Both the position numbers and the translations under genes were made by a program. From Candidatus Doudnabacteria bacterium (GTDB taxonomy: Bacteria; Patescibacteriota; Doudnabacteria; UBA920), in assembly GCA_963837465.1 (NCBI GenBank), contig CAWINB010000004.1:650853-714852 (forward strand): a DNA stretch of 64,000 nucleotides, written 5' to 3'. Shown here in pieces: positions 3,271 through 64,000 of the stretch. How positions within the stretch are numbered: the first letter of the stretch is position 1; the number at the start of each line of letters is the position of its first letter. The notes below the pieces were generated by a model. It had not been told where the DNA came from. It worked only from the letters and a program-made list of their open reading frames with translations, and searched no databases.

Positions 3271-3317
3271 CCCTAACCCCTAACCCCTAACCCCTAACCC
3301 CTAACCCCTAACCCCCT
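3271..3317. repeat. tandem heptamer repeat (CCCCTAA)x~6.5, telomere-like, preceded by hairpin GTTAGGG-TCCT-CCCTAAC
   Basis: Direct reading of the sequence. Lies in the 83-bp gap between prgI-like and virB4-like genes. Confidence 0.95.
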
Positions 3318-4004
3318 CTGATGAAACTAGAAATGCAAAAGAAAAATAAGGCGCCCGGGAAAACCACCCAGAGTTTTTTGCGCTTAAGCGAAATTAAAAA
3401 CGATACCGTGGTGGTGGACGACGGCACTTTGCGCGCCATTATTTCCGTTTCCAGCACCAATTTTGATTTAAAAAGCCAGGATGAGCAGAATTCCATCATC
3501 TTTAACTTCCAGCGTTTTTTAAACTCCCTGGATTTTTCCATCCAGATTTTAATGCAGAGCCGCAAAATGGAAGTCGGGAGCTATATTGAAAAACTCCACC
3601 GTTTGGCGGAAAAACAGACTAACGAACTGCTTCGGGTGCAGACGGCCGAATATATAGAGTTCATTAGCCGCCTTATTGAGAATGCCAGCATTATGAACAA
3701 AAATTTTTACATTATTGTTCCGCTTGGCGAAAGCATTTTTCCCAACGCCGCGGGTTTGTTTAGCCGGCTTTTGGGCAACGGGAAATCAAAGGAGATTAGC
3801 CAGAAAATAGAGAACTTTGAAAAGGCCAAGGAAAAATTGGACACCAGGGTGGTGGCGTTAATGTCCAATTTGTCGGGAATAGGCATCCGCGGCCAGCGGC
3901 TTAAAACCGAGGAAATTATCCAGCTCTATTACAACTCCTATAATTTTGAAGAAGCTCCGCTGGTGGATCCTGGGCAGCTTAAAGATATAAAAATCTCCGA
4001 ATAG

Positions 4005-16152: not shown

Positions 16153-16356
16153 ATTGGCTTGAATTGATTAAAATGTATTGAGAAACCGTATAAAAAGTCC
16201 ATTCCGGCTGAAATCCCGTAATTTCGGCCGTTGTCATAAAAATTTTATCGGCTTGGCTTTAGGCTGAACCTTAAAAATTATTTATGCCAACCGCCACGAA
16301 ATTCTGAAATTTCATCACTAAAGCAACTTTCTGTACCGTTTCCAAGTATTTATCAC

Positions 16357-18917: not shown

Positions 18918-19640
18918 TTAGTCCCTCGCCGCCGTCAAGCAAATCACTTTTGCCGCGCCGTTGCGTTTTAGGATTTTGGCGGCTTCCTGGAGGGTGGAGC
19001 CGGTGGTGGCGACATCGTCTACAAGGATAATATTTTTGCCGCGGACATCCGCTCCGGGTTTTAGCTTAAAGGCATCGCTGACATTTTTTAGGCGCTGCTC
19101 TTTTTTTAAATCTTTTTGCGTTTTCGTATGCTTACAGCGTACTAGTACGCTAGCGCACGCGATACCCAGTTCCCGGCTCAGGCTTCGGCATAAAATTTCC
19201 GCCTGGTTAAAGCCGCGCCAGCGTTCGCGGGATGGATGGAGCGGGACATAGGCTAATTCGTACGAATTAGCAGTCAGATGCGTATGGTCATTTTTAATTT
19301 TTTGCGCCACGGTTTTCCCAAAAATATTATAAACTTCCGATATGAATTTGTATTTTCCGGCGATTATTATTTTAGCGACTTTGTCATCGTGATAATCGTA
19401 AAAACTAATCAATCCGTCGGCTCCGTGAGGCGTTTGGCAGCCGGGATGTGTAAAGCCGAATATCGCCTGTTTTTGGCAGGCAATACAGCGCTGGCGCTCC
19501 AGCACCGTTAAAGATATTTTACATTCAGCGCAAATAAAATTTCCCTCACCGCCACAGCTCACACAGGAAATGGGGAATAAAGTGTCCAGGACGAAAGTTT
19601 TAATATCCAGCCAGAACGGTTTTATAAATGTTTGATACAT
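18918..19640 (-). CDS. comF: ComF family protein (phosphoribosyltransferase domain, competence)
   Basis: N-terminal Cys4 zinc ribbon (CVSCGGE...CAEC...CIAC) and a C-terminal PRTase motif ILVDDVATTGSTL. Confidence 0.75.
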   Translation of the reverse strand: MYQTFIKPFWLDIKTFVLDTLFPISCVSCGGEGNFICAECKISLTVLERQRCIACQKQAIFGFTHPGCQTPHGADGLISFYDYHDDKVAKIIIAGKYKFISEVYNIFGKTVAQKIKNDHTHLTANSYELAYVPLHPSRERWRGFNQAEILCRSLSRELGIACASVLVRCKHTKTQKDLKKEQRLKNVSDAFKLKPGADVRGKNIILVDDVATTGSTLQEAAKILKRNGAAKVICLTAARD

Positions 19641-25886: not shown

Positions 25887-25923
25887 GGGGGTAGGGTATA
25901 GGGGCTAGGGGGTTAGGGGTTAG
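25887..25923. repeat. G-rich flank GGGGGTAGGGTATAGGGGCTAGGGGGTTAGGGGTTAG (GGGGTTA units)
   Basis: Inverted complement of the C-rich flank 26308-26343 on the other side of the 4HB gene. Has at least 4 G-tracts. Confidence 0.85.
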
Positions 25924-30196: not shown

Positions 30197-32626
30197 ATGC
30201 CGGATTTTTTGGATAATTTAAAAGATAGTGTTGATAGCTATATTGACAATCGCGCTTTGGCGGATTTGCAGTATCGGGTGAAGTTGATTTTAAAGGAGCG
30301 CGAGGAGTTAAGGGACTGGAGCGACAAGGAGCTGCGTCTGGCGGCTTTGGCTTTTAAGGACGATTTGGCCAAAGGCAAGCGGCTGGATACTTTGGTGGTG
30401 CAGGCTTTTGCCGTGGTTAACGAAGCCGCCCGCCGCGTGACCAGGCAAACGCCTTTTCCGGCGCAAATTTTGGCGGGACTGGTCATCAACAGCGGCATTG
30501 TGGCGGAAATGAAGGCCGGCGAGGGTAAGACTTTAACCGAAACTATGCCGGTTTACACTAACGCGCTGCTTGGCCACGGCGTGCATCTGGTTACCACCAA
30601 CGATTACCTGGCCGAGCGCGACGCCGCGCAAAACGGCAAGCTGTTTAATTTTTTGGGCCTGTCCGTGGGCTTTGTGACCTCGACTATGAAGAGCGACGAG
30701 CGCAAAAAATCCTACGCCGCGGACATCACTTACGTCACCAACCAGGAGGTCGGGTTTGATTACCTGCGCGACAACCTGGTATTTTCCAAAAACCAAAGAG
30801 TTTTAAGGGCCGAGCATCCGCTTTATTTTGGCATTGTGGATGAAATTGACAGCATCTTAATAGACGAGTCGCGCACGCCGCTTATTATAGCCGAGCCGGT
30901 TAAGGAAGAGCGGAATTTTTACGATTTGTTCACCCAAATTGCTGAACAGTTAAAAGAAGACGAAGACTATACTGTTGATTACCAAAAAAAACAAATCAGC
31001 ATGACCGACGAAGGCCTTAACAAAGTGGAAAAATTTTTGGGCAGTCCGGTGTTTTCCAAAGACAATCCCATGTACGTGTTTTACCTGGATGTTTGTTTAA
31101 AGGCCAGGGTAATTTTTGAAAAAAACCGCGACTATATTTTAAGCGACGAGGGCGTGGAAATCGTGGATGAATTTACCGGCCGCGTTTTGCCCGGCCGCAG
31201 GTTCACCGACGGCGTGCACCAGGCCATCGAGGCCAAGGAAAAGGTTAAGGTTAAACAGGCGGACAGGATCCAGGCCAGCATCACCTTCCAGAATTTTTTT
31301 CCCATGTACGAAAAACTTTCCGGCATGAGCGGCACCGTTATGCGCGCCCGCGACGAGTTTAAAAAAGTCTACAAACTGGAAGTGGTTCAGATCCCAACCA
31401 ACCGGCCTATCATTCGCGTTGACCACAACGACTTGTTTTTTAAAACCCAAAAAGGCAAGTTTATGGGACTGATGAAAAAAGTCAGCCACCTTAACCAAAA
31501 AGGCCAGCCGGTATTAATCGGCACCCGCAACGTGGAGACCGCGCATTTGGTGGCTGAGCTTTTGGACCAGGCCCGCTATCCCTATCAGATGCTTACGGCC
31601 AGCGACCACCGCGCCGAGGCGGAAAAAATCCAGAAAGCCGGCCAAGACGGCATGATAACCGTGGCCACCAATATGGCCGGGCGCGGCACCGACATTTTGC
31701 TCGGCCCGGGAGTGGAAAATTCCGGCGGCTTGTTTGTGCTGGGTACGGAACGCCACGAATCGCGCCGCATAGACGACCAGCTGGTGGGACGCAGCGGCAG
31801 ACAGGGCGAACCCGGAGAATCGCAATTTTTAATTTCCATGGAAGACGAAATTATGCAGCTGTTCGGCAGCGAAGCGATTATTGACGCCATGGAAGCTTAC
31901 GATATCCCGGAGGACGAATATGTTTCCGGCAACAACCTGACCAAAGCTTTTAAAAAAGCCCAGGATTTTGTGGAAAGCAAAAATCTGGACAGCCGGCTCT
32001 ATCTTTACAAATACGACAGCGTCACCAATTACCAGAGGCGCTATGTTTACGGCCAGCGCGACAGCCTGCTGGAAAACGAAGCCAATTTTTTGGATTTTTT
32101 AACAACTTCCGTCCGCCGCCGCCTGAGGCAAATTTTGGAATTAAAAGATCCGCGGTTAATCGCCGGGGAAATGCTGGCCGTGTTCAGGGTGGAGGCGGCG
32201 CCCGAAGAAATTGCCGCTTCTTTGGGGCTGGAGCCGGATGCCGCCAAAACAACCCGCGCCATAAATGAGTGGCTCAATCCTTTTTACAAAAACCCGAACC
32301 CCCCAAACAATACCTTTAACGCGGCTCAGGAAAAACTGGCTTCGTATTTGGAAAAGTTGGCCTTAAAGATAAAGCGGGAGCCCGAGGTTTACCAGGCCGC
32401 CGGCAGTTTAATTCTGCAAATTATAGACAACCAGTGGAGCCAGCAGCTGGAGCTGATGGAAGCGCTTAAGGAACAGGCGGGACTGTTTTCCTACGTTTCC
32501 CAGGATCCGCTCATAGATTTCGTGCTGGAAGGCCAGAAACTGTTTGACCATAGCCAAAACGAAATGGCGCGCCAGTTTTTATCTGCCATATTTTTGCACT
32601 TGGAGCAAAAGGGGATGATAGAGTAG
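30197..32626 (+). CDS. secA: preprotein translocase ATPase SecA
   Basis: MKAGEGKTLTETMPVYTNALLG...LVTTNDYLAERD and DEAD-like motifs. 809 aa. Confidence 0.9.
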   Translation: MPDFLDNLKDSVDSYIDNRALADLQYRVKLILKEREELRDWSDKELRLAALAFKDDLAKGKRLDTLVVQAFAVVNEAARRVTRQTPFPAQILAGLVINSGIVAEMKAGEGKTLTETMPVYTNALLGHGVHLVTTNDYLAERDAAQNGKLFNFLGLSVGFVTSTMKSDERKKSYAADITYVTNQEVGFDYLRDNLVFSKNQRVLRAEHPLYFGIVDEIDSILIDESRTPLIIAEPVKEERNFYDLFTQIAEQLKEDEDYTVDYQKKQISMTDEGLNKVEKFLGSPVFSKDNPMYVFYLDVCLKARVIFEKNRDYILSDEGVEIVDEFTGRVLPGRRFTDGVHQAIEAKEKVKVKQADRIQASITFQNFFPMYEKLSGMSGTVMRARDEFKKVYKLEVVQIPTNRPIIRVDHNDLFFKTQKGKFMGLMKKVSHLNQKGQPVLIGTRNVETAHLVAELLDQARYPYQMLTASDHRAEAEKIQKAGQDGMITVATNMAGRGTDILLGPGVENSGGLFVLGTERHESRRIDDQLVGRSGRQGEPGESQFLISMEDEIMQLFGSEAIIDAMEAYDIPEDEYVSGNNLTKAFKKAQDFVESKNLDSRLYLYKYDSVTNYQRRYVYGQRDSLLENEANFLDFLTTSVRRRLRQILELKDPRLIAGEMLAVFRVEAAPEEIAASLGLEPDAAKTTRAINEWLNPFYKNPNPPNNTFNAAQEKLASYLEKLALKIKREPEVYQAAGSLILQIIDNQWSQQLELMEALKEQAGLFSYVSQDPLIDFVLEGQKLFDHSQNEMARQFLSAIFLHLEQKGMIE

Positions 32627-32880
32627 AACCTGTTTTAAAAATACTCCGGGCCGCGATTTAAGAATTTTGGCCAAAATCCCAAAAAAATTGTTCCGTTTAA
32701 CTTAGGTTAAACACCAAAATTTATATTGAAATTTTGTCACAAAATTCTTAAATTCCGCCCGCGAATTATTTTTCAAACAGGTTTTAGTGATAAAAATGAA
32801 CAAAAATTAAAAAAATGACAAAAATTAAACGCCCCACGCGGCGCATTGCCAAGTAGGCTTATTTTTAATATAATTGCTCC

Positions 32881-33162
32881 ATGCTTTCCAAAGAAGATGT
32901 TTTAAAAATCGCTGAATTGGCGCGTATAGCTTTAACCAATGCCGAGGTGGAAAAGTTCCAAAAGGACCTTTCCGCGGTTTTGGATTATGTGGACGAGTTA
33001 AAATTGGTTGACGTTTCCGGTTTGGAAGAAGTTTCGCAGGTTACGGGACTGGTTAATGTCCAGCGCGAAGACAAAACCGTAACGGCCGAAAACCACGAAG
33101 CTATTTTTAAAAACGCGCCGGAGATGAAAGACGGGTATTACAAGGTTAAAGCAATATTGTAA
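32881..33162 (+). CDS. gatC: Asp/Glu-tRNA amidotransferase subunit C
   Basis: LSKEDVLKIAELARIALTNAEVEKFQKDLSAVLDYVDEL. Confidence 0.85.
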   Translation: MLSKEDVLKIAELARIALTNAEVEKFQKDLSAVLDYVDELKLVDVSGLEEVSQVTGLVNVQREDKTVTAENHEAIFKNAPEMKDGYYKVKAIL

Positions 33163-33218
33163 TTTACGAAGTCGTGCCATTCGTAAGTTCGTAAATTTTT
33201 CGTACTTCGTAAACTAGA

Positions 33219-34688
33219 ATGAACTTCCAATATCTACAACTAACCGAATTGCGCAAGCTTTTGGATGACAAACAACTCTCCTCCGTTGAACTGACGAAGT
33301 ATTTTTTGGAGCGGATAAAAAACAGCGACCTTAACGCTTTTATTACGGTAACCGAAGATTTGGCTATCCAGCAGGCAAAGCGCGCGGATGATTTTATATC
33401 AAGCCCAGGTGAAAACCCTTTTTTATGCGGTATTCCTTACGCGGCCAAAGATTTGTTTTGCGCAAAAGGCGTCCGCGCCACCGCGGCCAGCAAAATTTTG
33501 GACAACTATATCGCGCCGTACAATGCCACGTCAATTAGCAAAATCAAACAAAATTACGGAGTATTAATCGGCAAAACCAATTTGGACCAGTTCGCGCACG
33601 GCTCAAGCGGCGAGACATCGGCTTACGGCCCCACCAAAAATCCCTGGGACGAAACCCGCATGCCCGGCGGCTCGTCTTCCGGCTCATGCGCGGCCGTTGC
33701 CGCCGGCCTTAGTCCCTGGGCGGTGGCGACCGAAACCGGCGGCAGTATCCGCCAACCCGCCTCGCTTTCCGGCATCAGCGGCTGGAAACCAACATACGGC
33801 CGCGTTTCGCGCTACGGAGTTATTTCCATGGGCTCGTCACTGGATTCCATAGGAGCGGTAGCCTATTCGGTCCGCGATCTGGCGGAAATTGCCAATGTTA
33901 TGTCGGGCATTGACCCCAAAGATTCAACCACCGGCGACCATCCCGCAAACTACAAACTACATCCTACAAACTTGTCCCACATCCGCGTGGGCATCCCCAA
34001 ACAATATTTTGTGGATGGCATGGAAGCGGGCGTAAAGCAGCGCGTAATGGAAGCGATTAAAGAACTGGAAAAGTTGGGCGCAACGCTGGTGGAAGTTGAT
34101 TTGCCGAATACCAAATATGGTTCCTTGGTTTACGCGATTATCTGCCCATCGGAAGTTTCTTCCAATTTGGCGCGCTACGACGGCATTCGCTACGGACATG
34201 TAACCAACGAGGCCAAAGATCTTTTGCAGGTTTACGAAAAATCCCGCGCCGAGGGTTTTGGCAACGAAGCCAAGCGCCGCATTTTAACCGGTACTTACGT
34301 GCTGTCCGCCGGTTATTACGATGCTTACTACAAAAAAGCCCAAAAAGTCCGCAGGCTGATTATTAACGAATTTGCCGAAATTTTTAAACAGGTGGATGTT
34401 TTAGCCTGCCCCTCCACCCCGAATGTGGCCGCAAAGCTTGGCCATGCCGCCGACAACCCGCTTCACGGCTACATTGCCGACCAGTTAAATATTCCCGGCT
34501 CCCTGGCCGGCCTGCCCGCTTTATCGGTACCCTGCGGTTTTGCCAAAGCTCCCGATGCCGATGTTGACCTACCCGTGGGCCTGCAAATAATCGGCCCGCA
34601 ATGGGGCGAGCAAAAAGTTTTTGATGTCGGGCATGCGTACCAGTTGGCTACGGACTGGCATAAAAAACATCCGGACAGTATGAATTAG
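33219..34688 (+). CDS. gatA: Asp/Glu-tRNA amidotransferase subunit A
   Basis: Amidase signature (GGSSSGSCAAVA...ETGGSIRQPAS). Confidence 0.9.
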   Translation: MNFQYLQLTELRKLLDDKQLSSVELTKYFLERIKNSDLNAFITVTEDLAIQQAKRADDFISSPGENPFLCGIPYAAKDLFCAKGVRATAASKILDNYIAPYNATSISKIKQNYGVLIGKTNLDQFAHGSSGETSAYGPTKNPWDETRMPGGSSSGSCAAVAAGLSPWAVATETGGSIRQPASLSGISGWKPTYGRVSRYGVISMGSSLDSIGAVAYSVRDLAEIANVMSGIDPKDSTTGDHPANYKLHPTNLSHIRVGIPKQYFVDGMEAGVKQRVMEAIKELEKLGATLVEVDLPNTKYGSLVYAIICPSEVSSNLARYDGIRYGHVTNEAKDLLQVYEKSRAEGFGNEAKRRILTGTYVLSAGYYDAYYKKAQKVRRLIINEFAEIFKQVDVLACPSTPNVAAKLGHAADNPLHGYIADQLNIPGSLAGLPALSVPCGFAKAPDADVDLPVGLQIIGPQWGEQKVFDVGHAYQLATDWHKKHPDSMN

Positions 34689-34710: not shown

Positions 34711-34786
34711 GTGTCATCCCGGAATTTTTACAGCGTCCGACGTAGCTTTAGCGAAGTCGGAAGGGCTGTTAAAATATCCGGGATCC
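34711..34786. repeat. copy D of the dispersed palindromic element family (GTCATCCCGG...GCGTCCGACG...CCGGGAT)
   Basis: Shares words with 53857-53937, 59562-59652 and 62539-62606. Confidence 0.5.
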
Positions 34787-35089
34787 AGAATTAAGTGTGC
34801 CGCGCCGATTCATCGGCTTAATTATTAAAGGTTATAAAATGACAAGCGCAATTGTGTTTATAATTTTGTTAGAAGATGTTTAAAAAGTGCTTTGTAGGCG
34901 AAATTACAGAATTTTGCGCGGATTGACGGAAACAAATTTTGACGTTTAGCCTAAAGCTAAGCGGAAAAATTTTTTTCGGCAAGGCGCCAAACATTCTGGA
35001 ATCGCGGCCCAAATGACTTTTTAAACAGCTTCTTAGATGTTTTGGCTTTAATTACAATAATTTATTATTTTTTACAAAGAAGGTAACTA

Positions 35090-36743: not shown

Positions 36744-36787
36744 ATTCGTATGTTTTAGCGTACTAGTACGTTAGCTATTACGAAATC
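36744..36787. repeat. palindromic element (core AGCGTACTAGTACG), copy 2
   Basis: ATTCGTATGTTTTAGCGTACTAGTACGTTAGCTATTACGAAAT, related to 58514-58559 and 19122-19165. Confidence 0.7.
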
Positions 36788-36901
36788 CGAAAATTAATAT
36801 AATTAGGACTTACGCCTTTGACAATATTACCTAAGTTATTGTTTAATCAGCTTTTAAAAAAGCCATAATTTAGACCCCAAAGGCGTAAGTCCTAATAATA
36901 A

Positions 36902-37297: not shown

Positions 37298-38224
37298 TTA
37301 CGTTTCAGATAGTTTTGCCACCCAGACAATATCCTTATTCTTTTTCCACCACGTCATCTGCCGTTTGGAGTAGTGCTTAATGGCAAAAGAAAGCTGGGTG
37401 AGCATTTCTTCACGCGACAGTTTTTTTTGCAGGAATAGCGCTATATATTTGTATTCCAGGCCGAATGATTCCAGCCGTTTCCAGGACAGGCCGAGGCTAT
37501 GGAGTTTTCGGACTTCCTTTACTACTCCCGCCTTAAAGCGCAGCTTTAGCCTGACGTCTATTTTTTCATAAAGCTCATCTTGCTCCGGATACAAGCCAAG
37601 CCAAAGAGCGTCATAGCTGACTGCTGACTGCTGATTACTTTTGACAGGCACAGGCTTGCCGGTTGTTATAACAATTTCCAGCGCGCGGATGAGGCGGCGT
37701 TTGTTGTGGCGGTCGATGGTTGTTGCGCGGCTTGGATCCAGTTTTTTAAGTTGCCGGTACAAATCATCGGCCGATTTTTTTTCCAGTTTCGCCCGCAATT
37801 TCAAGTTCGGCTTAACATCTGGAATTTTTTGATCGTAAACAACGGCATCAATCCAGTGCGCCGTGCCGCCGCAGAGGATGGGCAGTTTGCCGCGGCTTAA
37901 AATATCGGCGATGGCTTTTTTGGCGTCTTGCTGAAAAAGCGCGGCGGAATATTGCCTGTTCGGATTTATAAAGTCTATGCAATGGTGCGCGATTTTTTTA
38001 TAAACAAACTGTTTGCATAAATGACGGCCGTCATTTATAGTAACACTCCATTTGCCGGGGACTTTGCCGGTGCCCAGGTCAAGGCCGCGGTAAATTTGCC
38101 GGCTGTCGCAGGAAATTATCTCGCCGTTGAATTTTTTTGCCAGTTTGACGGCAAGTTCCGATTTACCGGACGATGTAGGGCCGACGACGATAATTATCTT
38201 CGGGAGGTTATTTTTTGCCATCAT
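37298..38224 (-). CDS. miaA: tRNA dimethylallyltransferase MiaA
   Basis: P-loop GPTSSGKS and DSRQIYRGLDLGTGK. Confidence 0.85.
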   Translation of the reverse strand: MMAKNNLPKIIIVVGPTSSGKSELAVKLAKKFNGEIISCDSRQIYRGLDLGTGKVPGKWSVTINDGRHLCKQFVYKKIAHHCIDFINPNRQYSAALFQQDAKKAIADILSRGKLPILCGGTAHWIDAVVYDQKIPDVKPNLKLRAKLEKKSADDLYRQLKKLDPSRATTIDRHNKRRLIRALEIVITTGKPVPVKSNQQSAVSYDALWLGLYPEQDELYEKIDVRLKLRFKAGVVKEVRKLHSLGLSWKRLESFGLEYKYIALFLQKKLSREEMLTQLSFAIKHYSKRQMTWWKKNKDIVWVAKLSET

Positions 38225-49832: not shown

Positions 49833-50040
49833 AGCCCCTGCCTTATAAAAAACTTATTAAAGTTCTTGAGGCCAGGGTTTTGTAATTGCCAGGCAAAAAG
49901 GGAGTCATGTCATTCTAAAAAATATCCGGACCGGCAAAATGGTTCCGGTTCCTTCGCACGGCAGAAACAAACGCATCTACATCGGGACTTTTTTAGCTAT
50001 CTTAAAACAGGCTAATATTGAACCAAGGGATATAAATTAA
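49829..50040 (+). pseudogene. hicA: HicA-family toxin, frameshifted at a G-run (about 49874-49876)
   Basis: ATGA overlap with hicB. MKPLPYKKLIKVLEAR, then after a 1-nt shift GFVIARQKGSHVILKNIRTGKMVPVPSHGRNKRIYIGTFLAILKQANI. Confidence 0.65.
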
Positions 50041-51960: not shown

Positions 51961-52134
51961 ATGTTCCAATTCCTAACCCAGGTTAAAAATGAGCTTAGTA
52001 AAGTAGTTTGGCCCACAAGGGCTGAAACCATCAGGTATACCTTTACGGTTATTATTTTTAGTTTGGTTGTGGCTGCCATTTTAGGCGCGTTTGATTTTTT
52101 GCTGCTGACTGTGATTGAGAAAGTCCTGACTTAG
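51961..52134 (+). CDS. secE: preprotein translocase subunit SecE (57 aa, below the ORF-track cutoff)
   Basis: MFQFLTQVKNELSKVVWPTRAETIRYTFTVIIFSLVVAAILGAFDFLLLTVIEKVLT. Canonical position upstream of nusG. Confidence 0.7.
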   Translation: MFQFLTQVKNELSKVVWPTRAETIRYTFTVIIFSLVVAAILGAFDFLLLTVIEKVLT

Positions 52135-52302
52135 AACTTATCTTAAAAATACTTAGGGCCGCAATTCCGTAATTTTGGCGGCTTGCCTGGAAAAACATTT
52201 TTGCTTAATTCAGGTTAAACATCAAAGTTTGTTTGGAGCTAATCCGTCCAAAATTCCGAAATTCCACCTACAAATTATTTTTAAGGCCGGTTCTCATTAA
52301 AA

Positions 52303-52839
52303 ATGTTGCCTCCAGGACATATTGCCGCGGGTTTTTTAACAGCCAAAGCTCTTTTGCGCTACAACCACCGTTCTTTGACCATTCACCAGCAATCCATGCT
52401 TTTATTCTGGGGAGCTTTGTTTGGCTTTAGTCCGGACTTGGATACCTTTGTGAGTTTTGCCCGGGAAAAGGCCTTTGTGGTCAAAAATCGGCAAAACAAC
52501 CACCGTAAGTTTGTCAGCCACGCGCCAATATTATGGCTTTTTGCCGGACTGCTGATTTATTTTTTGGCTAAAACCGCTTACGTTAAGGATATTGGTTTGC
52601 TTTTATGGCTTGCCAGCTGGAGCCATTTCATCCTCGACTCCATAGATTACGGTATTATGTGGCTGTGGCCGTTTTCCAAAAAAGTTTACGCCTTGCGCAA
52701 CCGTGAAGTTAACTTTAAAATAGCGGATAAAACCTTTTTGGGTTACTGGTTTGAATTCCTAAAATATTACTCCAAAACCTGGACATTTTATACTGAAATT
52801 TTAATTCTCGCGCTTTCATTAATAATTTATTTTAAGTAA
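52303..52839 (+). CDS. membrane-bound metal-dependent hydrolase-like protein (DUF457/YdjM-like)
   Basis: His-rich TM protein (HIAAGF...SHAP...SWSHFILD). Confidence 0.4.
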   Translation: MLPPGHIAAGFLTAKALLRYNHRSLTIHQQSMLLFWGALFGFSPDLDTFVSFAREKAFVVKNRQNNHRKFVSHAPILWLFAGLLIYFLAKTAYVKDIGLLLWLASWSHFILDSIDYGIMWLWPFSKKVYALRNREVNFKIADKTFLGYWFEFLKYYSKTWTFYTEILILALSLIIYFK

Positions 52840-52958: not shown

Positions 52959-53504
52959 ATGTCACGACAACAAGTTACCGGGCAGCGCCATTGGTATGTT
53001 TTGCACACTTACAGCGGTTATGAAGACAGCGTGGCTTTTAATTTGAAGCAGCGCATAGAAACCATGAACATGCAGGACAGCATTTTTGACGCCATGGTGC
53101 CCAAGGAAAAGAAAATCAAGATTAAAGACGGCAGGCGCGCAACTTTTGAGGAGAAAATTTTTCCCGGATATGTTTTGGTGGATATGGTCGTAACCGACGA
53201 TTCCTGGTACGTGGTCCGCAACACGCCCAACGTTACGGGTTTTGTGGGCAGCGGCACCGTTCCCACGCCAATCAGCGAAGACGAGCTCAGCTTCCTTAAA
53301 AAGCGTATGGGCGCGGATGAGCCCAAATACAAGGTTGAGTTTATCGCCGGCGATTTGGTTAAAATAAACGACGGGCCGTTTAAGGATTACGAAGGCAAAG
53401 TCGGCTCCCTGGACGAAGCCCACGGCAAAGTCAAAGTCATGGTCACTATCTTCGGTCGCGAAACCCCGGTGGAGCTGGACTTTTTGCAGGTTAAGAAAAT
53501 GTAA
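52959..53504 (+). CDS. nusG: transcription antiterminator NusG
   Basis: NGN domain plus KOW (GDLVKINDGPFKDYEGKV). Confidence 0.9.
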   Translation: MSRQQVTGQRHWYVLHTYSGYEDSVAFNLKQRIETMNMQDSIFDAMVPKEKKIKIKDGRRATFEEKIFPGYVLVDMVVTDDSWYVVRNTPNVTGFVGSGTVPTPISEDELSFLKKRMGADEPKYKVEFIAGDLVKINDGPFKDYEGKVGSLDEAHGKVKVMVTIFGRETPVELDFLQVKKM

Positions 53505-53513
53505 ATTTTTTAA

Positions 53514-53789
53514 ATGCTAATAACAAAAAGTAAAATACCTAGGTATGTAAGTGGTTTTATAATAGGAGTTATATTGGCAGTTTTCGGTTTAGGTAAATTA
53601 TATTATTTGCCTCCTCCAGTTGACTTGGACGCAACACCTAATCAGTTCATTATTGGTTTTGGATTACTCTTTATTATTATAATAGGCTGCTTGATAGCAG
53701 TTATTTGCTTAATAATGATAATTATAGAATCGGTTCAAGCTCATAAAAGAGATGTAGATCAGAATAAAACCGGCGATAAAATCATTTAA
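53514..53789 (+). CDS. hypothetical small membrane protein, strongly AT-rich
   Basis: 91 aa with two TM helices. Lies between nusG and rplK. Confidence 0.4.
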   Translation: MLITKSKIPRYVSGFIIGVILAVFGLGKLYYLPPPVDLDATPNQFIIGFGLLFIIIIGCLIAVICLIMIIIESVQAHKRDVDQNKTGDKII

Positions 53790-53856
53790 TTTTTGAAAGG
53801 CATGGTTGGTCACGGATTCGTCCTGTGATCCCGATCGCGCTAAAAAGCCATAAATT

Positions 53857-53937
53857 GTCACCATTCCGAGGAGCGCGTCCGACGAGGAATCCCTTATCCC
53901 TATGTTTAAGGGATTCCTCGGATGCGCTAGGGATGGT
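53857..53937. repeat. copy A of the dispersed palindromic element (CCATTCCGAGGAGCGCGTCCGACGAGGAATCCCT ... AGGGATTCCTCGGATGCGCTAGGGATGG)
   Basis: Self-complementary arms. Same family as copies B, C and D. Confidence 0.7.
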
Positions 53938-53972
53938 ACAATGAGGGCAGCGGTCTACCATCGTAAAAACAT

Positions 53973-54395
53973 ATGGCAAAGAAAGTTAAAGTTTTAATTA
54001 AGCTCCAGCTTCCGGCCGGAAAGGCCACTCCCGCTCCTCCGGTTGGTACGGCGCTTGGTCCCCACGGTGTGAACATCGCGGCTTTTGTTAAGGAATTTAA
54101 CGACAAAACAGCGGGCGGAGACATGCTTATCCCGGTGGACATGACGGTTTACGAGGACAGGTCATTCAGTTTTGTTTTAAAAACTCCTCCGGCCGCCAAC
54201 CTGATAATGAAGGCGATTGGCCTGGCCAAAGGTTCGGCCAACCCTTTAACCACCAAAGTCGGCAAAATCACCTCCAAACAAATTAAGGAAATCGCGGAAA
54301 AAAAGATGGCGGACTTAAACGCCAACGATTTGGCCGCGGCGGAGAAAACCATACGGGGAACGGCACGGAGCATGGGAGTTGAAGTGATAGATTAA
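53973..54395 (+). CDS. rplK: 50S ribosomal protein L11
   Basis: Full consensus. Confidence 0.95.
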
Positions 54396-58513: not shown

Positions 58514-58559
58514 GGTTTCGTGTGCGCTAGCGTACTAGTACGCTAGCGCACACGAAACC
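58514..58559. repeat. 46-bp perfect palindrome GGTTTCGTGTGCGCTAGCGTAC|TA|GTACGCTAGCGCACACGAAACC (copy 3 of the palindromic element)
   Basis: Direct reading. Contains NheI- and SpeI-type hexamers. Related copies at 36744-36787 and 19122-19165. Confidence 0.9.
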
Positions 58560-58585: not shown

Positions 58586-59431
58586 ATGGCCAAAAGATTT
58601 TTAATCTGCTTAGTGTTGGTGTTATTGTTTTTTGCCGCGGCAGGAATTTACGGGGCGCTAAAGTACCGCGCCCAAATAAGGCAGGCCAGGCAAACCGCCA
58701 AAGCGCCGCAAACAAGCATTACTTTACTGCCGGGATGGAATAATCAGCAAATCGCCGATTATTTGCAGAAGAATAATATTGTTTCCGCGGCTGATTTTTT
58801 GAGCGCGGAGAAATCTTTTAACCTTTCCGTTTTTAATATGTCATATTATCCCAACCTAACAAGTAAGCCGGCCGCCGCCGACTTACAGGGCTTTATTTTT
58901 CCGGATACTTATTTTATCCCGGCCGCGGCACCCAGCGGTACCAATATTAGCGACATAATTATAGAAAAAGCACTGGATAATTTTTCCCAAAAGATTACGC
59001 CCCAAATAATTGACCAAGCGCAAAGCCAGGGGCTGGATTTGTACCAGCTCATTACTTTGGCATCTATAATAGAAAAAGAAACCGGGGCAAGCCAGGATGA
59101 CAAAAGAATAGTAGCCGGAATTTTTTATAACCGCCTTAACGCCGGTATGCCTCTGCAAAGCGATGCCACGGTAGAATACGCCTTGGGGCAAAGCAACAGC
59201 CATACCAGCGACCAGGACACGCAGGTTAATTCTCCATACAATACTTATTTGCATAACGGCTTGCCTCCGGGGCCGATATGCAACCCCTCCCTGGCTTCCA
59301 TTATGGCCGCGGCAGACCCAATCCAAACCAGTTATTTTTATTTTTTGACAGACCCCAAAACCGGCCAGGCCATTTACGCGCAAACGTACCAGGAGCAGCG
59401 GCAAAACCAGCAAAAATATTTGGGTGATTGA
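58586..59431 (+). CDS. mltG: endolytic murein transglycosylase MltG (YceG-like)
   Basis: N-terminal TM. GIFYNRLNAGMPLQSDATVEYALG. Confidence 0.75.
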   Translation: MAKRFLICLVLVLLFFAAAGIYGALKYRAQIRQARQTAKAPQTSITLLPGWNNQQIADYLQKNNIVSAADFLSAEKSFNLSVFNMSYYPNLTSKPAAADLQGFIFPDTYFIPAAAPSGTNISDIIIEKALDNFSQKITPQIIDQAQSQGLDLYQLITLASIIEKETGASQDDKRIVAGIFYNRLNAGMPLQSDATVEYALGQSNSHTSDQDTQVNSPYNTYLHNGLPPGPICNPSLASIMAAADPIQTSYFYFLTDPKTGQAIYAQTYQEQRQNQQKYLGD

Positions 59432-59561
59432 ATTTTGATAATTATCGTGTGTTTTGTAGGGCTGGCTTTCTTGACCGACGAAGCCTCGGCGAAGTTGGTA
59501 GTCGCCCGTCAAAGGATGGAGGGCTGCTAATCCCCGCACCTACAAACTTTGAATCACAAAA

Positions 59562-59652
59562 CGCCATTCCGAGCGCGGCGAGGAATCCCTTTCCATAAAG
59601 AATTATCCTTAGATAAGGGATCCCTCACTCGGCTGCTACTGTTCGGGATGGC
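59562..59652. repeat. copy B of the dispersed palindromic element (CATTCCGAGCGCGGCGAGGAATCCCT ... AGGGATCCCTCACTCGG...CGGGATGG)
   Basis: Same family as A, C and D. Confidence 0.65.
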
Positions 59653-59695
59653 CAAAATAGTGTTTCGTAATTTAAAGCTACAAAGATGGTTCGAG

Positions 59696-60616
59696 TTACC
59701 CTAAATGGCTACCCACAAAATCCCTATAACCATTTAAAAAATCGTTTATTGCCATTTCATTTTTACCCTCAAGCTTGAGGGTTTTTATTTGGATTATTGT
59801 GCTATTGCCGGAGGACACTTTGCCGCCGGGCATTATTGTCCCCGGGTCGCTAAGCGCAGTCTCGTCCGTTGGCAGGCAATCCAAAATCTGGATTTTTTTG
59901 CCCTGCCAGGTTGTCCAAATTCCCGGCCAAATATAGAAAGCGCGGAACTGGTTGTATATTTCCGCGGCTGTTTTTTGCCAGTTAATCTGCCCATCCTGTT
60001 TGGCTATGATTTTGCTGTAACTGGCGGCGGAATCATCCTGGGGCAGGGGAGTTATTTTGCCGTTCGCGTAGTCATTTAATACTTCGTTAATGATTTTCGC
60101 GGAAAGCCGGGCTAACTTATCTGACAGCGTAAAGAAATTGTCATCGGAGTCTATACCTGTAATTTCCTGGGATAACAGCGGGCCGTCATCAACTTTTTCA
60201 TCCAGCAAAAATATGGAAGTGCCGGTTTGCGCGTCACCGTTAAGCAGCGCGAACTGAATGGGGGATGGGCCCCGGTATTTCGGCAAAACCGAAAAGTGGA
60301 CATTGACGGTTTTAAATTTCGGCAGGTTAATTATCTGGGGCGGCAAAATTTTGCCGTAAGCCACCACTACAAAAATATCAGCGCCTAAATTTCGCAGCTC
60401 TGCCGGAAGTTCCTGGTTATTTTTTACTTTTTCGGGCTTAAAAGTTTTTAAGCTTAAATCTTTGGCCAAAGCCGCAACGGGGCTTTCCCGGGTCAATTGT
60501 TTGCGCCCGACCTTAACATCCGGCGTGGTAACCACAGCCAAAACCTCATGCTGCTTTTTTAAAGCTTCCAAAACCGGCAGTGCCACGTTGGAAGTGCCAA
60601 AAAATATTATTTTCAT
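59696..60616 (-). CDS. fmt: methionyl-tRNA formyltransferase
   Basis: MKIIFFGTS...VVTTPD...SLLPKYRG. Confidence 0.85.
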   Translation of the reverse strand: MKIIFFGTSNVALPVLEALKKQHEVLAVVTTPDVKVGRKQLTRESPVAALAKDLSLKTFKPEKVKNNQELPAELRNLGADIFVVVAYGKILPPQIINLPKFKTVNVHFSVLPKYRGPSPIQFALLNGDAQTGTSIFLLDEKVDDGPLLSQEITGIDSDDNFFTLSDKLARLSAKIINEVLNDYANGKITPLPQDDSAASYSKIIAKQDGQINWQKTAAEIYNQFRAFYIWPGIWTTWQGKKIQILDCLPTDETALSDPGTIMPGGKVSSGNSTIIQIKTLKLEGKNEMAINDFLNGYRDFVGSHLG

Positions 60617-60679
60617 AGAGTTTGCAAAGTACGAAAAATTTACGAGCTCGCGAATCGCCGCGCAGGTCCTTCATAAATT

Positions 60680-61249: not shown

Positions 61250-61376
61250 AGCGCGCCATTCCGAGGGCAGGCGCAGCCGCCGCCCGGGGAACCCTTTAAA
61301 TTTAATTATTGCGAAACAGTACGGTTAACGTAGTGTCAAGGGTGACCCTTGACACTACGTGGGGTGCCGTGTCCTT

Positions 61377-61913: not shown

Positions 61914-61993
61914 AAAATTTACGAGATACGGAAATTTGCGAACTTACGAATGGCGCGACTTCGTAAGTTCGCACGCGTTCGACGGTTCGCAAA

Positions 61994-62497
61994 CTACAAC
62001 TTTTTTTCTTTCTTCCATTGACTGACAATTTCCTCCCCCTGCGTGTACTTGTTAATCAAATCTATAATCAGCCGGCCGTTAATGTGGTCAATTTCGTGCT
62101 GCGCCACGCGGCTGACCCAGGCCTCATCCGTAAAAGTAATTTTTTCCCCCAGCGCATTTTGCGCCGCAATGGTAACTTTTCGCGGGCGCTTGACCATGCC
62201 AAATACTCCGCGAATGGACAGGCAACCTTCTTCCAGTTCTGTTTTTTTTAGTCCTTTATAAACAACTTTCGGGTTGTAGAGCGCCAGCAGGGGAATGCTG
62301 TTTTTTTCCAGATTAATGATAATCAATTTTACGGATTTTCCAACCTGCGGCGCGGCCAACCCAATGCCGTCAGCCTGCCGCACCGTGTCCATCATGTCTT
62401 TGGTCAATTTTTTTATTTCCGGCGGCAAAGGAAAAATTACCGGCTCGGTCGGTTTGCGCAAAGCTTCGTTGGGATAAGTAAGGATTGGTAGAATCAT
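61994..62497 (-). CDS. def: peptide deformylase
   Basis: GIGLAAPQVG, EGCLS and HEIDH. Confidence 0.9.
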   Translation of the reverse strand: MILPILTYPNEALRKPTEPVIFPLPPEIKKLTKDMMDTVRQADGIGLAAPQVGKSVKLIIINLEKNSIPLLALYNPKVVYKGLKKTELEEGCLSIRGVFGMVKRPRKVTIAAQNALGEKITFTDEAWVSRVAQHEIDHINGRLIIDLINKYTQGEEIVSQWKKEKKL

Positions 62498-62531
62498 ACT
62501 GGTAATGACAAAAATAACAAACCTTAATTTA

Positions 62532-62948
62532 TTATTCAGCTGTCATCCCGAGCGCGTCCGAGGAATCCCTCGCTTTGTCCGGGACGGCAGTAAACTGCCG
62601 TTTTCGCATAATTTTGTCATTTTTGCCCAATTCCTGATTGTTCTTTTTTATCAAATAAGCAAACAGCCGTCCCGGGGTTTTTACGGTTTTGCTTTCCGTT
62701 ATCTGTCCCGCCAGTCCCCGTAGAAAGTCGTGATTATACAAAACCGCCATCTTTAAATAAAACGCGAAGTGTTTCCTGTCGTTCAGTTTTTGGGAAAGTT
62801 CGTCGGCCAAAAGATGGTTGGCAGAATGCAAATGGGGGCTGGGCTTAGGCTTGGCCGCTTTTCTCTGCTCAAATTTGGCGATTTTACCCAAAAGTTCCAT
62901 AAGATTATTATACATTATTTTCTTAAAAAAGGCTATTAAAATAGGCAT
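62532..62948 (-). CDS. hypothetical protein whose 3' end is encoded by repeat-element copy C
   Basis: The likely start is MELLGK at 62898. The last 15 or so codons overlap element C. Confidence 0.35.
   Translation of the reverse strand: MPILIAFFKKIMYNNLMELLGKIAKFEQRKAAKPKPSPHLHSANHLLADELSQKLNDRKHFAFYLKMAVLYNHDFLRGLAGQITESKTVKTPGRLFAYLIKKNNQELGKNDKIMRKRQFTAVPDKARDSSDALGMTAE
62539..62606. repeat. copy C of the dispersed palindromic element (GTCATCCCGAGCGCGTCCGAGGAATCCCT...), followed by hairpin CGGCAGTAAACTGCCG
   Basis: Same family as A, B and D. Confidence 0.65.
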
Positions 62949-62968: not shown

Positions 62969-64000
62969 ATGGAAAAAATGGATATTGCCGGATTAAAAGT
63001 CAATGCCGTTACCAAACGGGAATTTCTGGCCCAATGCCTGGCGCGGGTAAAAGCGGGAGAGAAAACTTTTGTCATCACGCCTTATTCCGAGTTTTTGTAC
63101 CGTGCTTTTAAGAACCCATCGCTTTTGGAAATTTTCAACGCCGCGGATTTTTCCCTGGCCGACGGCATCGGAATTTTTTGGGCCAAAAAATATTTGGGCT
63201 TGCCTTTAACCGCCAAAAGTTTTTACGGAAAAATTTTGCAGAGTTTATGGCAAATGTTTTATAGTTTGGCCGCGATAATTTTTTATCCCGCCTGGATAAA
63301 ATTGGCATTGCCGGAAAAAATCGTAGGCGCGGACTTGGTATGGGATTTGGCAAGACTTGCGGCCAACAACAACCTGTCAATTTATCTTTTGGGCGGGTTC
63401 GGCGACACGGCAAAAATAGCCGCCCATCAACTAACCGCTGTTACTAAAAATGACGGCCGTCATTTAAGCGAACGGTTAAAAATCGCGGGATGGTCAAATA
63501 AAAATCCGGATGACCTCTCGGTTATGAAGGACATTAACAAATCATCAGCGGATATTTTGTTTGTGGCTTACGGCCCGGTAAAACAGGAGAAATGGATAGC
63601 GGAAAATTTAAAAAACCTTAACGTTAAACTGGCCATAGGCGTGGGCGGCAGTTTTGATTACATCGCGGGAGTAAAATCCGCGCCGCCGAAAATCATCAGA
63701 TATTCCGGCCTGGAATGGTTATGGCGGCTGGTTACCCAACCCTACCGTTTTAAAAGAATCGTGAACGCGACTTTTGGGTTGATGACTTATCTTACCCGCT
63801 ACAAAGTTTTTATGAGCTATCCTTATCGTAAAAACGTTGTCAGTATTATTTTAAACTCAAAAAATGAAGTGCTGATATGCCGCCGCAATCCCAACAATCC
63901 CCAAGACATACTCTACGGTTTTCAAAAAAATGACATGGTTAATTATTGGCAGTTTACCCAAGGCGGGATAGATGATGGAGAAACCATTGAACAAACGGCT
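62969..64000 (+). CDS. WecB/TagA/CpsF-family glycosyltransferase fused to a C-terminal NUDIX hydrolase domain (3' end beyond the window)
   Basis: Absent from the ORF track because the frame is open to the window end. DGIGIFWA and DILFVAYGPVKQEKW match TagA. The Nudix box begins GGIDDGETIEQ. Confidence 0.6.
   Translation, partial: MEKMDIAGLKVNAVTKREFLAQCLARVKAGEKTFVITPYSEFLYRAFKNPSLLEIFNAADFSLADGIGIFWAKKYLGLPLTAKSFYGKILQSLWQMFYSLAAIIFYPAWIKLALPEKIVGADLVWDLARLAANNNLSIYLLGGFGDTAKIAAHQLTAVTKNDGRHLSERLKIAGWSNKNPDDLSVMKDINKSSADILFVAYGPVKQEKWIAENLKNLNVKLAIGVGGSFDYIAGVKSAPPKIIRYSGLEWLWRLVTQPYRFKRIVNATFGLMTYLTRYKVFMSYPYRKNVVSIILNSKNEVLICRRNPNNPQDILYGFQKNDMVNYWQFTQGGIDDGETIEQTA

Follow-up and report, generated by a model that had tools for sequence, protein, structure and literature searches.

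The Ssn system and the repeats of the window

The pairing of Ssn nucleases with a family of hairpin repeats has already been published (Chenal et al., Nat Commun 2025, PMC11893778). We analysed a stretch of 64,000 nucleotides (nt) from a Candidatus Doudnabacteria bacterium genome (GCA_963837465.1, contig CAWINB010000004.1, positions 650,853 to 714,852), called the window below, which carries dispersed palindromic elements at four sites, named A to D here. These elements are very likely copies of the CGTC-tagged REP or Ssn-related hairpin repeats, in a variant form of the known Ssn system.

SsnA is a single-domain GIY-YIG protein of 94 amino acids (aa) that binds its hairpin as single-stranded DNA (ssDNA) only and cuts a few nt 5' of the tag; cleavage depends on the three bases 5' of the palindrome, and binding on the C just 3' of it (PMC11893778). 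The Neisseria repeat, NTS, was defined as CGTCATTCCCGCGMAVGCGGGAATCYRG, and the broader class was named Ssn-related motifs (SRM). SRM were found near 71% of the ssnA homologues and on both sides of 42%. In N. meningitidis, SsnA lowered transformation by NTS-bearing DNA about five-fold. The NTS-ssnA-NTS arrangement was likened to an insertion sequence (IS), and a domestication was proposed (all PMC11893778).

The second related group is the CGTC-tagged REP superfamily (Di Nocera, De Gregorio, Rocco, BMC Genomics 2013, PMC3733652). It comprises CGTC-1 to CGTC-4 and includes Neisseria dRS3 and Rickettsia RPE-4 and RPE-6. Its members show an unpaired terminal tag (CGTC, or TGTC or CCTC), a stem that starts with A-T and T-A, a tail and predominantly head-to-head dimers, and no Y1 transposase lies adjacent to them.

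Repeat units in the window

Direct reading of the sequence confirmed the four sites where the original prediction had placed them. The prediction had described each palindrome of about 80 nt as one repeat element. The family is real, but its basic unit is half of such a palindrome, a hairpin of 28-40 nt. Two such units in inverted orientation, their tags outward, make up site B (53857-53939) and likewise site C (59563-59652). The consensus unit reads, 5' to 3', (Y)GTC, ATNNN, GA, inner hairpin, GA, N'N'N'AT and C(C/T)CT. The units are listed below with their parts in 5' to 3' order. "Model" denotes a covariance model of 33 units from other genomes, run on the window with filters off.

34713-34787, plus strand: site A, one long hairpin of a different, related subfamily (sequence and fold, z −5.5); GTC, ATCCCGG, 55-nt structured interior, CCGGGAT, tail CCA.
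53857-53894, plus strand: B-left unit (sequence; model match 53854-53894, E 2.3e-4); GTC 53857-59, 3-nt insert ACC between tag and stem, ATTCC 53863-67, GA, inner segment GGAGCGCGTCCGAC, GA, GGAAT 53886-90, tail CCCT.
53895-53908: 14-nt spacer of B (sequence); loop of the long hairpin in the fold.
53909-53939, minus strand: B-right unit, degenerate (sequence; weak model match 53909-53942, E 4.4); tag GTACC, ATCCC facing GGAAT (one C·A mismatch), TA replacing the first GA.
59563-59590, plus strand: C-left unit (best model match in the window, 59560-59590, E 2.9e-9); tag GCC, ATTCC, GA, GCGCGGC, GA, GGAAT, CCCT.
59591-59615: 25-nt spacer of C (sequence).
59616-59652, minus strand: C-right unit (sequence; model match 59616-59655, E 1.3e-4); tag GCC, ATCCC, GA, 16-nt inner segment, GA, GGGAT, CCCT.
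61255-61295, plus strand: possible degenerate fifth unit (sequence; no model match at E ≤ 10); tag GCC, ATTCC, GA, GC-rich inner hairpin, GG, GGAAC, CCT.
62542-62570, plus strand: D, single unit (model match 62539-62570, E 3.3e-6); GTC, ATCCC, GA, GCGCGTCC, GA, GGAAT (one C·A mismatch), CCCT.
62561-62591, minus strand: doubtful overlapping partner of D, ACTGCCGTCCCGGACAAAGCGAGGGATTCCT (model E 1.8 only).

In the 128 kb searched, the model gave four window matches with E < 1e-3 (C-left, D, C-right and B-left). The word GAGGAATCCCT with at most one mismatch occurred five times against 0.8 expected. Folded whole as ssDNA, the B and C dimers gave −24.8 and −18.9 kcal/mol, with z values of −6.2 and −3.4 against shuffles, and in the whole-dimer fold B-right paired well with B-left. 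Self-complementarity had been claimed for every copy; it holds for B and C, but site D is one unit plus the doubtful partner, has a fold z of −1.9 and is not a full palindrome. The partner of D may be a chance match. At site C the left stem is ATTCC/GGAAT and the right stem ATCCC/GGGAT, a compensated change from T-A to C-G.

Site A was not matched by the model in the window. It has no GA...GA feature, its interior is unrelated to the other sites, and it shares with them only TGTC-ATCCCGG...CCGGGAT-CCA. A homologous copy of site A was found in a close relative (L127/L128), and because of this recurrence A is treated as a separate small family. The one shared family of the original prediction is therefore kept for B, C and D and given up for A. 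In the fold of the 61255-61295 candidate, TTCC/GGAA paired around the inner hairpin with a z of −0.5 to −0.7.

That the palindromes arose by chance and share nothing beyond short words had been named at the outset as what formal alignment might reveal. For site A this applies in part, as the words it shares are of about 10 nt, and the 61255 candidate is likewise not significant. The four model matches refute it for B, C and D, and hundreds of homologous copies with covariation exist elsewhere. We give chance almost no credence as an explanation of the family.

The 4-nt tags of the window are TGTC (D, A and B-left), CGCC and GGCC (C), with GTACC at B-right. GTC adjoins the stem only in D and A, the GTC of B-left being displaced by 3 nt. 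The C just 3' of the stem is kept in 7/7 window units.

A relaxed structural regular expression gave 9 matches in the window, compared with 6.2 in shuffled sequence, and none of them but the known units were real. The word CCATYCCGA occurred at chance level across loci. TGTCATTC at 49908 was rejected as a unit, as it lies in a HicA-like remnant. Two inverted words, AATGACAAAA (62503-62514) and TTTTGTCATT (62611-62622), bracket site D with a model E of about 0.2; further units may have left them behind, or they may be chance. An ACGGCAG-TAAA-CTGCCGT hairpin beside D is unrelated to the repeat family. A search of the window and of 12 repeat-rich loci against Rfam gave no family that reached the gathering threshold, and literature searches by unit sequence words returned primers only.

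Repeat units in other genomes

Scanning one genome per GTDB species with an exact pattern gave at least 120 stretches from more than 10 phyla, among them Acidobacteriota, Chloroflexota, Patescibacteria, Gemmatimonadota, Verrucomicrobiota, Bacteroidota, Pseudomonadota and Nitrospirota. Many of the copies sit on megabase contigs. These genomes carry single units and many inverted dimers with the tags outside, and their inner hairpins are highly varied, from 7 to more than 30 nt, GCGNAGC being the commonest.

Covariation of the stem was counted without bias, using anchors that exclude the pairs (GTCAT-N3-GA...GA-N3-ATC). The three variable stem pairs were complementary in 200/227 cases: TCC/GGA in 164, CCC/GGG in 16, CCT/AGG in 8, TTC/GAA in 5 and TCT/AGA in 4. 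The same was seen in 43 model matches that were not pattern-selected, where pair 3 was T-A in 31, C-G in 11 and G-C in one, and pair 5 was C-G in 37 and T-A in 5. The covariation is within the unit and not between the arms of a dimer, as site C shows.

Other parts of the unit did not vary. The GTC tag was present in 148/150 copies family-wide and in 42-43 of the 43 unselected copies. The first two stem pairs, A-T and T-A, were found in all 150 aligned copies and in every window unit, and the C after the stem in 40 of the 43 unselected copies. The invariant parts are the GTC tag, the first two stem pairs, both GA dinucleotides and this C. At position −1, the 107 selected copies had 83 T and 21 C, and the 43 unselected ones had 38 T and 5 C.

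Repeated partial units from the 5' end (e.g. TGTCATTCTGATCAC, followed by a full unit) were seen at the outer edges of elements, at L148 (about 2430-2488), at L177, L139, L155 and L194 upstream of ssn, and at L036 (about 2740-2830). Such tandem copies suggest repeated events at the tag or cleavage region. In Acidobacteriota, a conserved flank like ACTTTTTC(A/C)GCAAnCTGTTAAACC lies 15-25 nt past the right unit of many dimers (e.g. L016, L026, L034, L039, L097, L100 and L102); the dimers there therefore seem to be part of larger composite repeats. Carriage between phyla by phages was considered and dropped, the motif being present in only 6 IMG/VR stretches.

Association with ssn genes

Clustering of 926 open reading frames (ORFs) from 120 repeat loci showed, as recurrent neighbours of the repeats, common housekeeping families and one cluster of small GIY-YIG proteins. 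In the motif-selected loci 4/4 of these small GIY-YIG ORFs adjoined units, and in one of them (L101) the gene lies between two inverted units. An independent test used 80 metagenomic loci fetched by protein alone, in which the covariance model found 216 units in 248 kb. Within 150 nt of the gene the unit density was 4.79/kb; it fell to 0.61/kb at 150-500 nt and to 0.07-0.08/kb farther away than 500 nt, an enrichment of about 65-fold near the gene, and no unit lay inside it. With a structural finder that does not depend on the model, a same-strand unit upstream was present in 52/70 (74%), an opposite-strand unit downstream in 47/70 (67%) and both in 39/70 (56%). Mock positions shifted by 1-1.5 kb gave 1-3 of 35-43 for one side and 0-1 for both sides.

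The ssn elements measure 343-584 nt from tag to tag, with T at −1 in 41/43 and A at +1 in 38/43. No target-site duplication was found in 40 full elements with comparable flanks, 36 of which show none at all. At L143 (2440-2850), a single case, a 17-nt direct repeat, ATAATTTGTATAAATTA, directly adjoins a perfect ssn element on the left and recurs 22 nt to the right of it.

The protein P0121, from a gene with the present units at its flanks, is 47% identical (E 2e-26) to the 94-aa SsnA orthologue of N. gonorrhoeae, which has NTS repeats at its flanks and carries Y6, Y17 and E64. Annotated proteins of Magasanikbacteria, Parcubacteria, Gracilibacteria and Absconditicoccaceae include close homologues of one of the unit-flanked proteins, and 3/3 genes of the candidate phyla radiation (CPR) that were fetched by identifier are flanked by units. 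NCBIfam holds no specific family for the nuclease, and a sequence search of the PDB gave only the distant UPF0213 entries 1ywl and 1zg2.

Left and right units of one element share their stem in 10/20 cases against 3.4 expected. Co-evolution of nuclease and stem was tried and rejected, as nearest-neighbour proteins share the stem type in 21/68 cases against 17.8 expected, which is no signal. Flank complementarity, as for insertion into hairpin loops, exceeded that of shuffles only weakly (a mean run of 0.78 against 0.40, with 0.97 as the highest shuffle value), and no general rule is claimed from it. At L218 (1443-1821; Gracilibacteria, GCA_028685995.1) a unit-flanked ssn gene lies between atpF and the gene after it in the ATP synthase operon and has 8 in-frame stop codons under table 11. 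Gracilibacteria reassign UGA, which would account for these stops.

A cognate transposase had been proposed as something to look for; none was found, and ssn-like genes are strongly associated with the repeats in other genomes instead. Two further explanations call for a transposase. The first is that the repeats are classical REP/REPIN elements mobilised by RAYT, an HUH-Y1 transposase that recognises ssDNA hairpins (Nunvar 2010; Bertels and Rainey 2011; Ton-Hoang 2012). In design the two agree: REP/REPIN elements, too, are short tagged hairpins of ssDNA set as inverted doublets, with a single-copy gene that stands between repeats of the kind it recognises, and no target site is duplicated. 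The tag here, however, is (Y)GTC and not GTAG, and RAYT works through a covalent intermediate whereas a GIY-YIG nuclease is hydrolytic. The GIY-YIG family is also the only small recurrent neighbour among the 926 ORFs, with no Y1 gene in the recurrent set, and CGTC-tagged repeats have no Y1 transposase beside them (PMC3733652). The ORFs flanking the window sites are housekeeping genes, 0/10 being a transposase; the other window ORFs were not scanned individually. The family is not a member of the REP/REPIN-RAYT group, and mobilisation by RAYT is very unlikely.

The second explanation treats the elements as MITEs (miniature transposable elements with inverted repeats) derived from an IS with a DDE transposase, complete with inverted repeats at the ends and a duplicated target site. 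In its favour, the elements are short with inverted arms, and one relative has an IS1595 transposase in its nusG region. Against a MITE origin stand the 40 full elements without a direct-repeat duplication at their ends, the fact that each arm is itself a covarying hairpin and is also found alone, and the enclosed gene, which encodes a GIY-YIG nuclease of 94-96 aa and not a DDE transposase. We consider this origin extremely improbable. The IS1595-family gene is located at L127 5190-6050 and L128 4252-5112, between a response-regulator gene and secE, and is absent at that position in the window and the other relatives.

Comparison with the published repeats

Taken across genomes, the units agree with SRM and NTS in the unpaired HGTC tag, of which few window units keep the GTC next to the stem, in the ATTCC...GGAAT stem that starts with A-T and T-A, and in the C after the palindrome. 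Both kinds occur in hundreds of dispersed, mostly intergenic copies, and both flank a single-domain GIY-YIG gene of about 94 aa, for the present type in other genomes. They differ in that a tandem G·A interrupts the stem here and the loop is replaced by an inner hairpin whose length varies from 7 to more than 30 nt. The window also has no ssn gene, and most of its units carry RCC in the tag.

The published SRM string, HGTCWYN(0-2)YYVSBRHN(0-5)WNVSBRGN(0-2)RNCYNB, is a search heuristic and not a definition. It does match Neisseria NTS; it misses the variant because of the tandem G·A and the variable inner hairpin. Patescibacteria, Acidobacteriota and Chloroflexota are unmentioned in the main text of PMC11893778, whose supplementary tables may list the variant. 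What goes beyond the main texts is the G·A form missed by the SRM string, its occurrence in Patescibacteria, and the RCC tag in 5/7 window units.

With the CGTC REPs the units share the CGTC or TGTC tag, the A-T and T-A first stem pairs, a short unpaired tail and the lack of an adjacent transposase. Head-to-head dimers have spacers of about 20-100 bp there; here the spacers are 14 nt (B) and 25 nt (C). Occasional intragenic copies of both are read in frame as typical peptides, ...RDSSDALGMT here and VIPAKAGI or SFLRKQES there. The CGTC stem, on the other hand, is an uninterrupted 8-9 bp with a loop of 4-5 nt, against 5 bp and G·A here. The tail is CCC or CTC here and CCA there, only site A having CCA. 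The phyla also differ, those of the CGTC REPs being Proteobacteria, Chlorobi, Bacteroidetes, Spirochaetes and Thermotogae. The 2013 survey would miss the G·A variant because palindromes with more than one mismatch were discarded (PMC3733652). Site D recalls the Rickettsia palindromic elements and other in-frame selfish repeats, as it supplies the C-terminal 13 residues of an ORF; the copies here are mostly intergenic, and the similarity to the Rickettsia elements is only through the CGTC-type core.

Gene context and turnover

Pfam confirmed the genes around the sites: gatA (33219-34688) and gatB; nusG (52959-53504) and the L11 gene rplK (53973-54395); YceG/MltG (58586-59431), convergent with fmt (59696-60616, minus strand); and def (61994-62497, minus strand). 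Homologues of the window's NusG carry the names Patescibacteria and Candidatus Doudnabacteria, which marks the host as a CPR bacterium. As predicted, site A follows gatA, starting 25 nt past its stop codon, C lies between mltG and fmt, and D overlaps the 3' end of ORF 62532-62948 (minus strand). A reverse-strand reading of the D unit gives the C-terminal 13 residues of this ORF (...ARDSSDALGMTAE*). Site B was correctly placed before rplK but does not directly follow nusG, as a 91-aa ORF (53514-53789) intervenes. This ORF has no Pfam match. A gene of similar size stands between nusG and rplK in the relatives L126 (91 aa), L129 (76 aa) and L127 (70 aa); L124 has none, and its nusG-rplK spacer is only 156 nt.

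In the relative L124, whose NusG is 86% identical, the same rplK leader occurs without B, and its GCCTTT-GAAA-AAAGGC hairpin is intact. In the window, B is an 86-nt insert in the loop of the GCCTTT hairpin, between flanks about 85-90% identical to L124. L125 and L127/L128 have independent dimers elsewhere in the rplK spacer, and L126 and L129 have none in it. The empty B site of the close relative L124 shows that the elements turn over, by gain or loss at orthologous sites.

As B stands in the rplK 5' leader, where it occupies the loop of a conserved hairpin, the elements could also be functional RNA elements of the flanking genes: they might act as intrinsic terminators, stabilise mRNA or belong to the rplK leader. 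C would suit a terminator, lying between the convergent mltG and fmt, and the terminator scan made one weak terminator-like call, on the minus strand and overlapping C's left arm. Neither B nor D was called, however, and no U-run follows either of them. L124 has the same leader without the insert, no Rfam family matched, and the unit sequence is found in many contexts, also inside ORFs. The characterised Ssn, moreover, does not bind RNA (PMC11893778). An RNA function is unlikely as the explanation of the family, and secondary effects of the elements on transcripts are possible.

The rplK upstream regions of the relatives show two different conserved 5' leaders. Leader 1 (window 53800-53972; L124 10612-10700) reads ATGGTTGGTCACGGAYTCGTCYTGTGATC...GGCAGCGRTCTACCAT, and leader 2 (L122, L123 and L126-L129) reads TTTTATCCCTGCTTCA...CGCTTCTYGA...GGATRRAAT. 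Neither rplK leader has an Rfam match.

Proposed mechanism and significance

Both readings that had been offered for the palindromes, REP-like elements and binding sites of a specific protein, can be kept. The tag, stem start, short C-rich tail and inverted dimers fit the CGTC-tagged REP superfamily, and the protein would be of the Ssn family, the small ssDNA-specific GIY-YIG nucleases (PMC11893778). As a single strand, the unit is predicted to fold with an unpaired 5' GTC, a 5-bp stem, the tandem G·A, the inner hairpin and the C 3' of the stem. By analogy with the characterised enzymes, an Ssn encoded elsewhere in the genome would recognise the window copies and act on them. The predicted substrate of an Ssn from a unit-flanked gene is ssDNA carrying TGTCATTCCGAGCGAAGCGAGGAATCCCT, which it would bind or cut. 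In the characterised relatives from Neisseria and Wolbachia, Ssn binds such hairpins as ssDNA only and cuts 5' of the tag, and in Neisseria it limits recombination of transforming DNA (PMC11893778).

In variant-bearing genomes an ssn homologue lies between two inverted units with the tags outside, and the B and C palindromes of 80-90 nt have this architecture without the gene. Most likely, B and C are non-autonomous or relict gene-less copies of ssn elements and D is a solo unit. We infer that the RCC-tag copies are decayed or re-specified.

Several points weigh against the Ssn explanation. ACC or GCC stands next to the stem in 5/7 window units (both of B, both of C, and 61255), and the position at which RCC replaces GTC is the cleavage-critical one in Neisseria SsnA (PMC11893778). 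A tblastn search (E ≤ 1) of the window together with 129 kb of relatives (193 kb) did not find ssn, and a resident enzyme is hypothetical; since the genome is roughly 1 Mb, this negative is uninformative. The canonical single unit folded at −2.7 kcal/mol with z near 0; because the nearest-neighbour energy does not favour the hairpin, it is covariation that carries the case for it. Matches to the SRM string numbered 0 for the window, 7 across the 889 kb of motif loci and 3 across the 248 kb of ssn loci. Units here have their tags outward, whereas one N. gonorrhoeae ssnA locus has them inward, and stem type does not track the protein phylogeny. Action of Ssn on a G·A-interrupted hairpin is argued from the enzymes of relatives. 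Excision as ssDNA by two cuts is not obvious, because each strand of a dimer has one forward unit. A hydrolytic nuclease cannot itself join DNA.

Membership in the Ssn system places a Patescibacteria genome within reach of this ssDNA nuclease. The published motif definition under-counts the system because G·A-interrupted hairpins are excluded from it, and such hairpins surround most ssn homologues in the 80 sampled loci. In the annotation of metagenome-assembled genomes, the repeats give rise to false C-terminal extensions and to small "hypothetical proteins"; ...RDSSDALGMT, ...GIPRFARND and ...SLRSE are tails read from the unit, and a simple model recognises the repeats. For enzymology, the variable stems, the inner hairpins of any length and the tag variant form a natural substrate series for Ssn specificity and for ssDNA tools. 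None of these findings overturns current understanding.

A further, tentative proposal, for which we see slightly less than even chances, is that the G·A hairpin (GTC-ATNNN-GA-[inner hairpin]-GA-N'N'N'AT-C) forms a distinct, uncatalogued SRM class, with a more widespread Ssn system, a reach into the CPR and a meaning for RCC. If so, it would be the main partner of Ssn in Patescibacteria, Acidobacteriota, Chloroflexota and Gemmatimonadota, which are largely uncultured, and would have gone unseen by both the SRM string and the 2013 REP survey, the Ssn system being much commoner than reported. The system would then extend to the ultra-small genomes of the CPR, whose organisms are thought to depend on DNA uptake. 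The RCC tag would mark either sites that are bound but uncut, or a re-specified cleavage determinant.

Other repeats in the window

A second palindromic family, GGTTTCGTGTGCGCTAGCGTACTAGTACGCTAGCGCACACGAAACC, is unrelated to the units; it has a perfect 46-nt palindrome at 58514-58559 and diverged copies at 19124-19168 and 36745-36792. A third inverted-repeat family, rich in TTCGTAA/TTACGAA (AAATTTACGAAGTCGTGCCATTCGTAAGTTCGTAAATTT), was found at 33161-33215, 60619-60658 and 61932-61969; it is 85-92% complementary between sites and intergenic beside gatC/gatA, fmt and def. A fourth repeat, with the palindrome AAATGACGGCCGTCATTT, occurs at 38007-38045 and 63439-63477 with 90% complementarity. Dispersed repeats of about 110-170 nt with 71-79% identity pair 32624-32794 with 52132-52303, and 16222-16330 with 34883-34991. 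They occupy spacers upstream of genes; one of these, between gatA and gatB, follows directly on site A. A tandem array of the heptamer CCCTAAC, repeated seven times, covers 3271-3319, and a related inverted stretch lies at 25887-25923.

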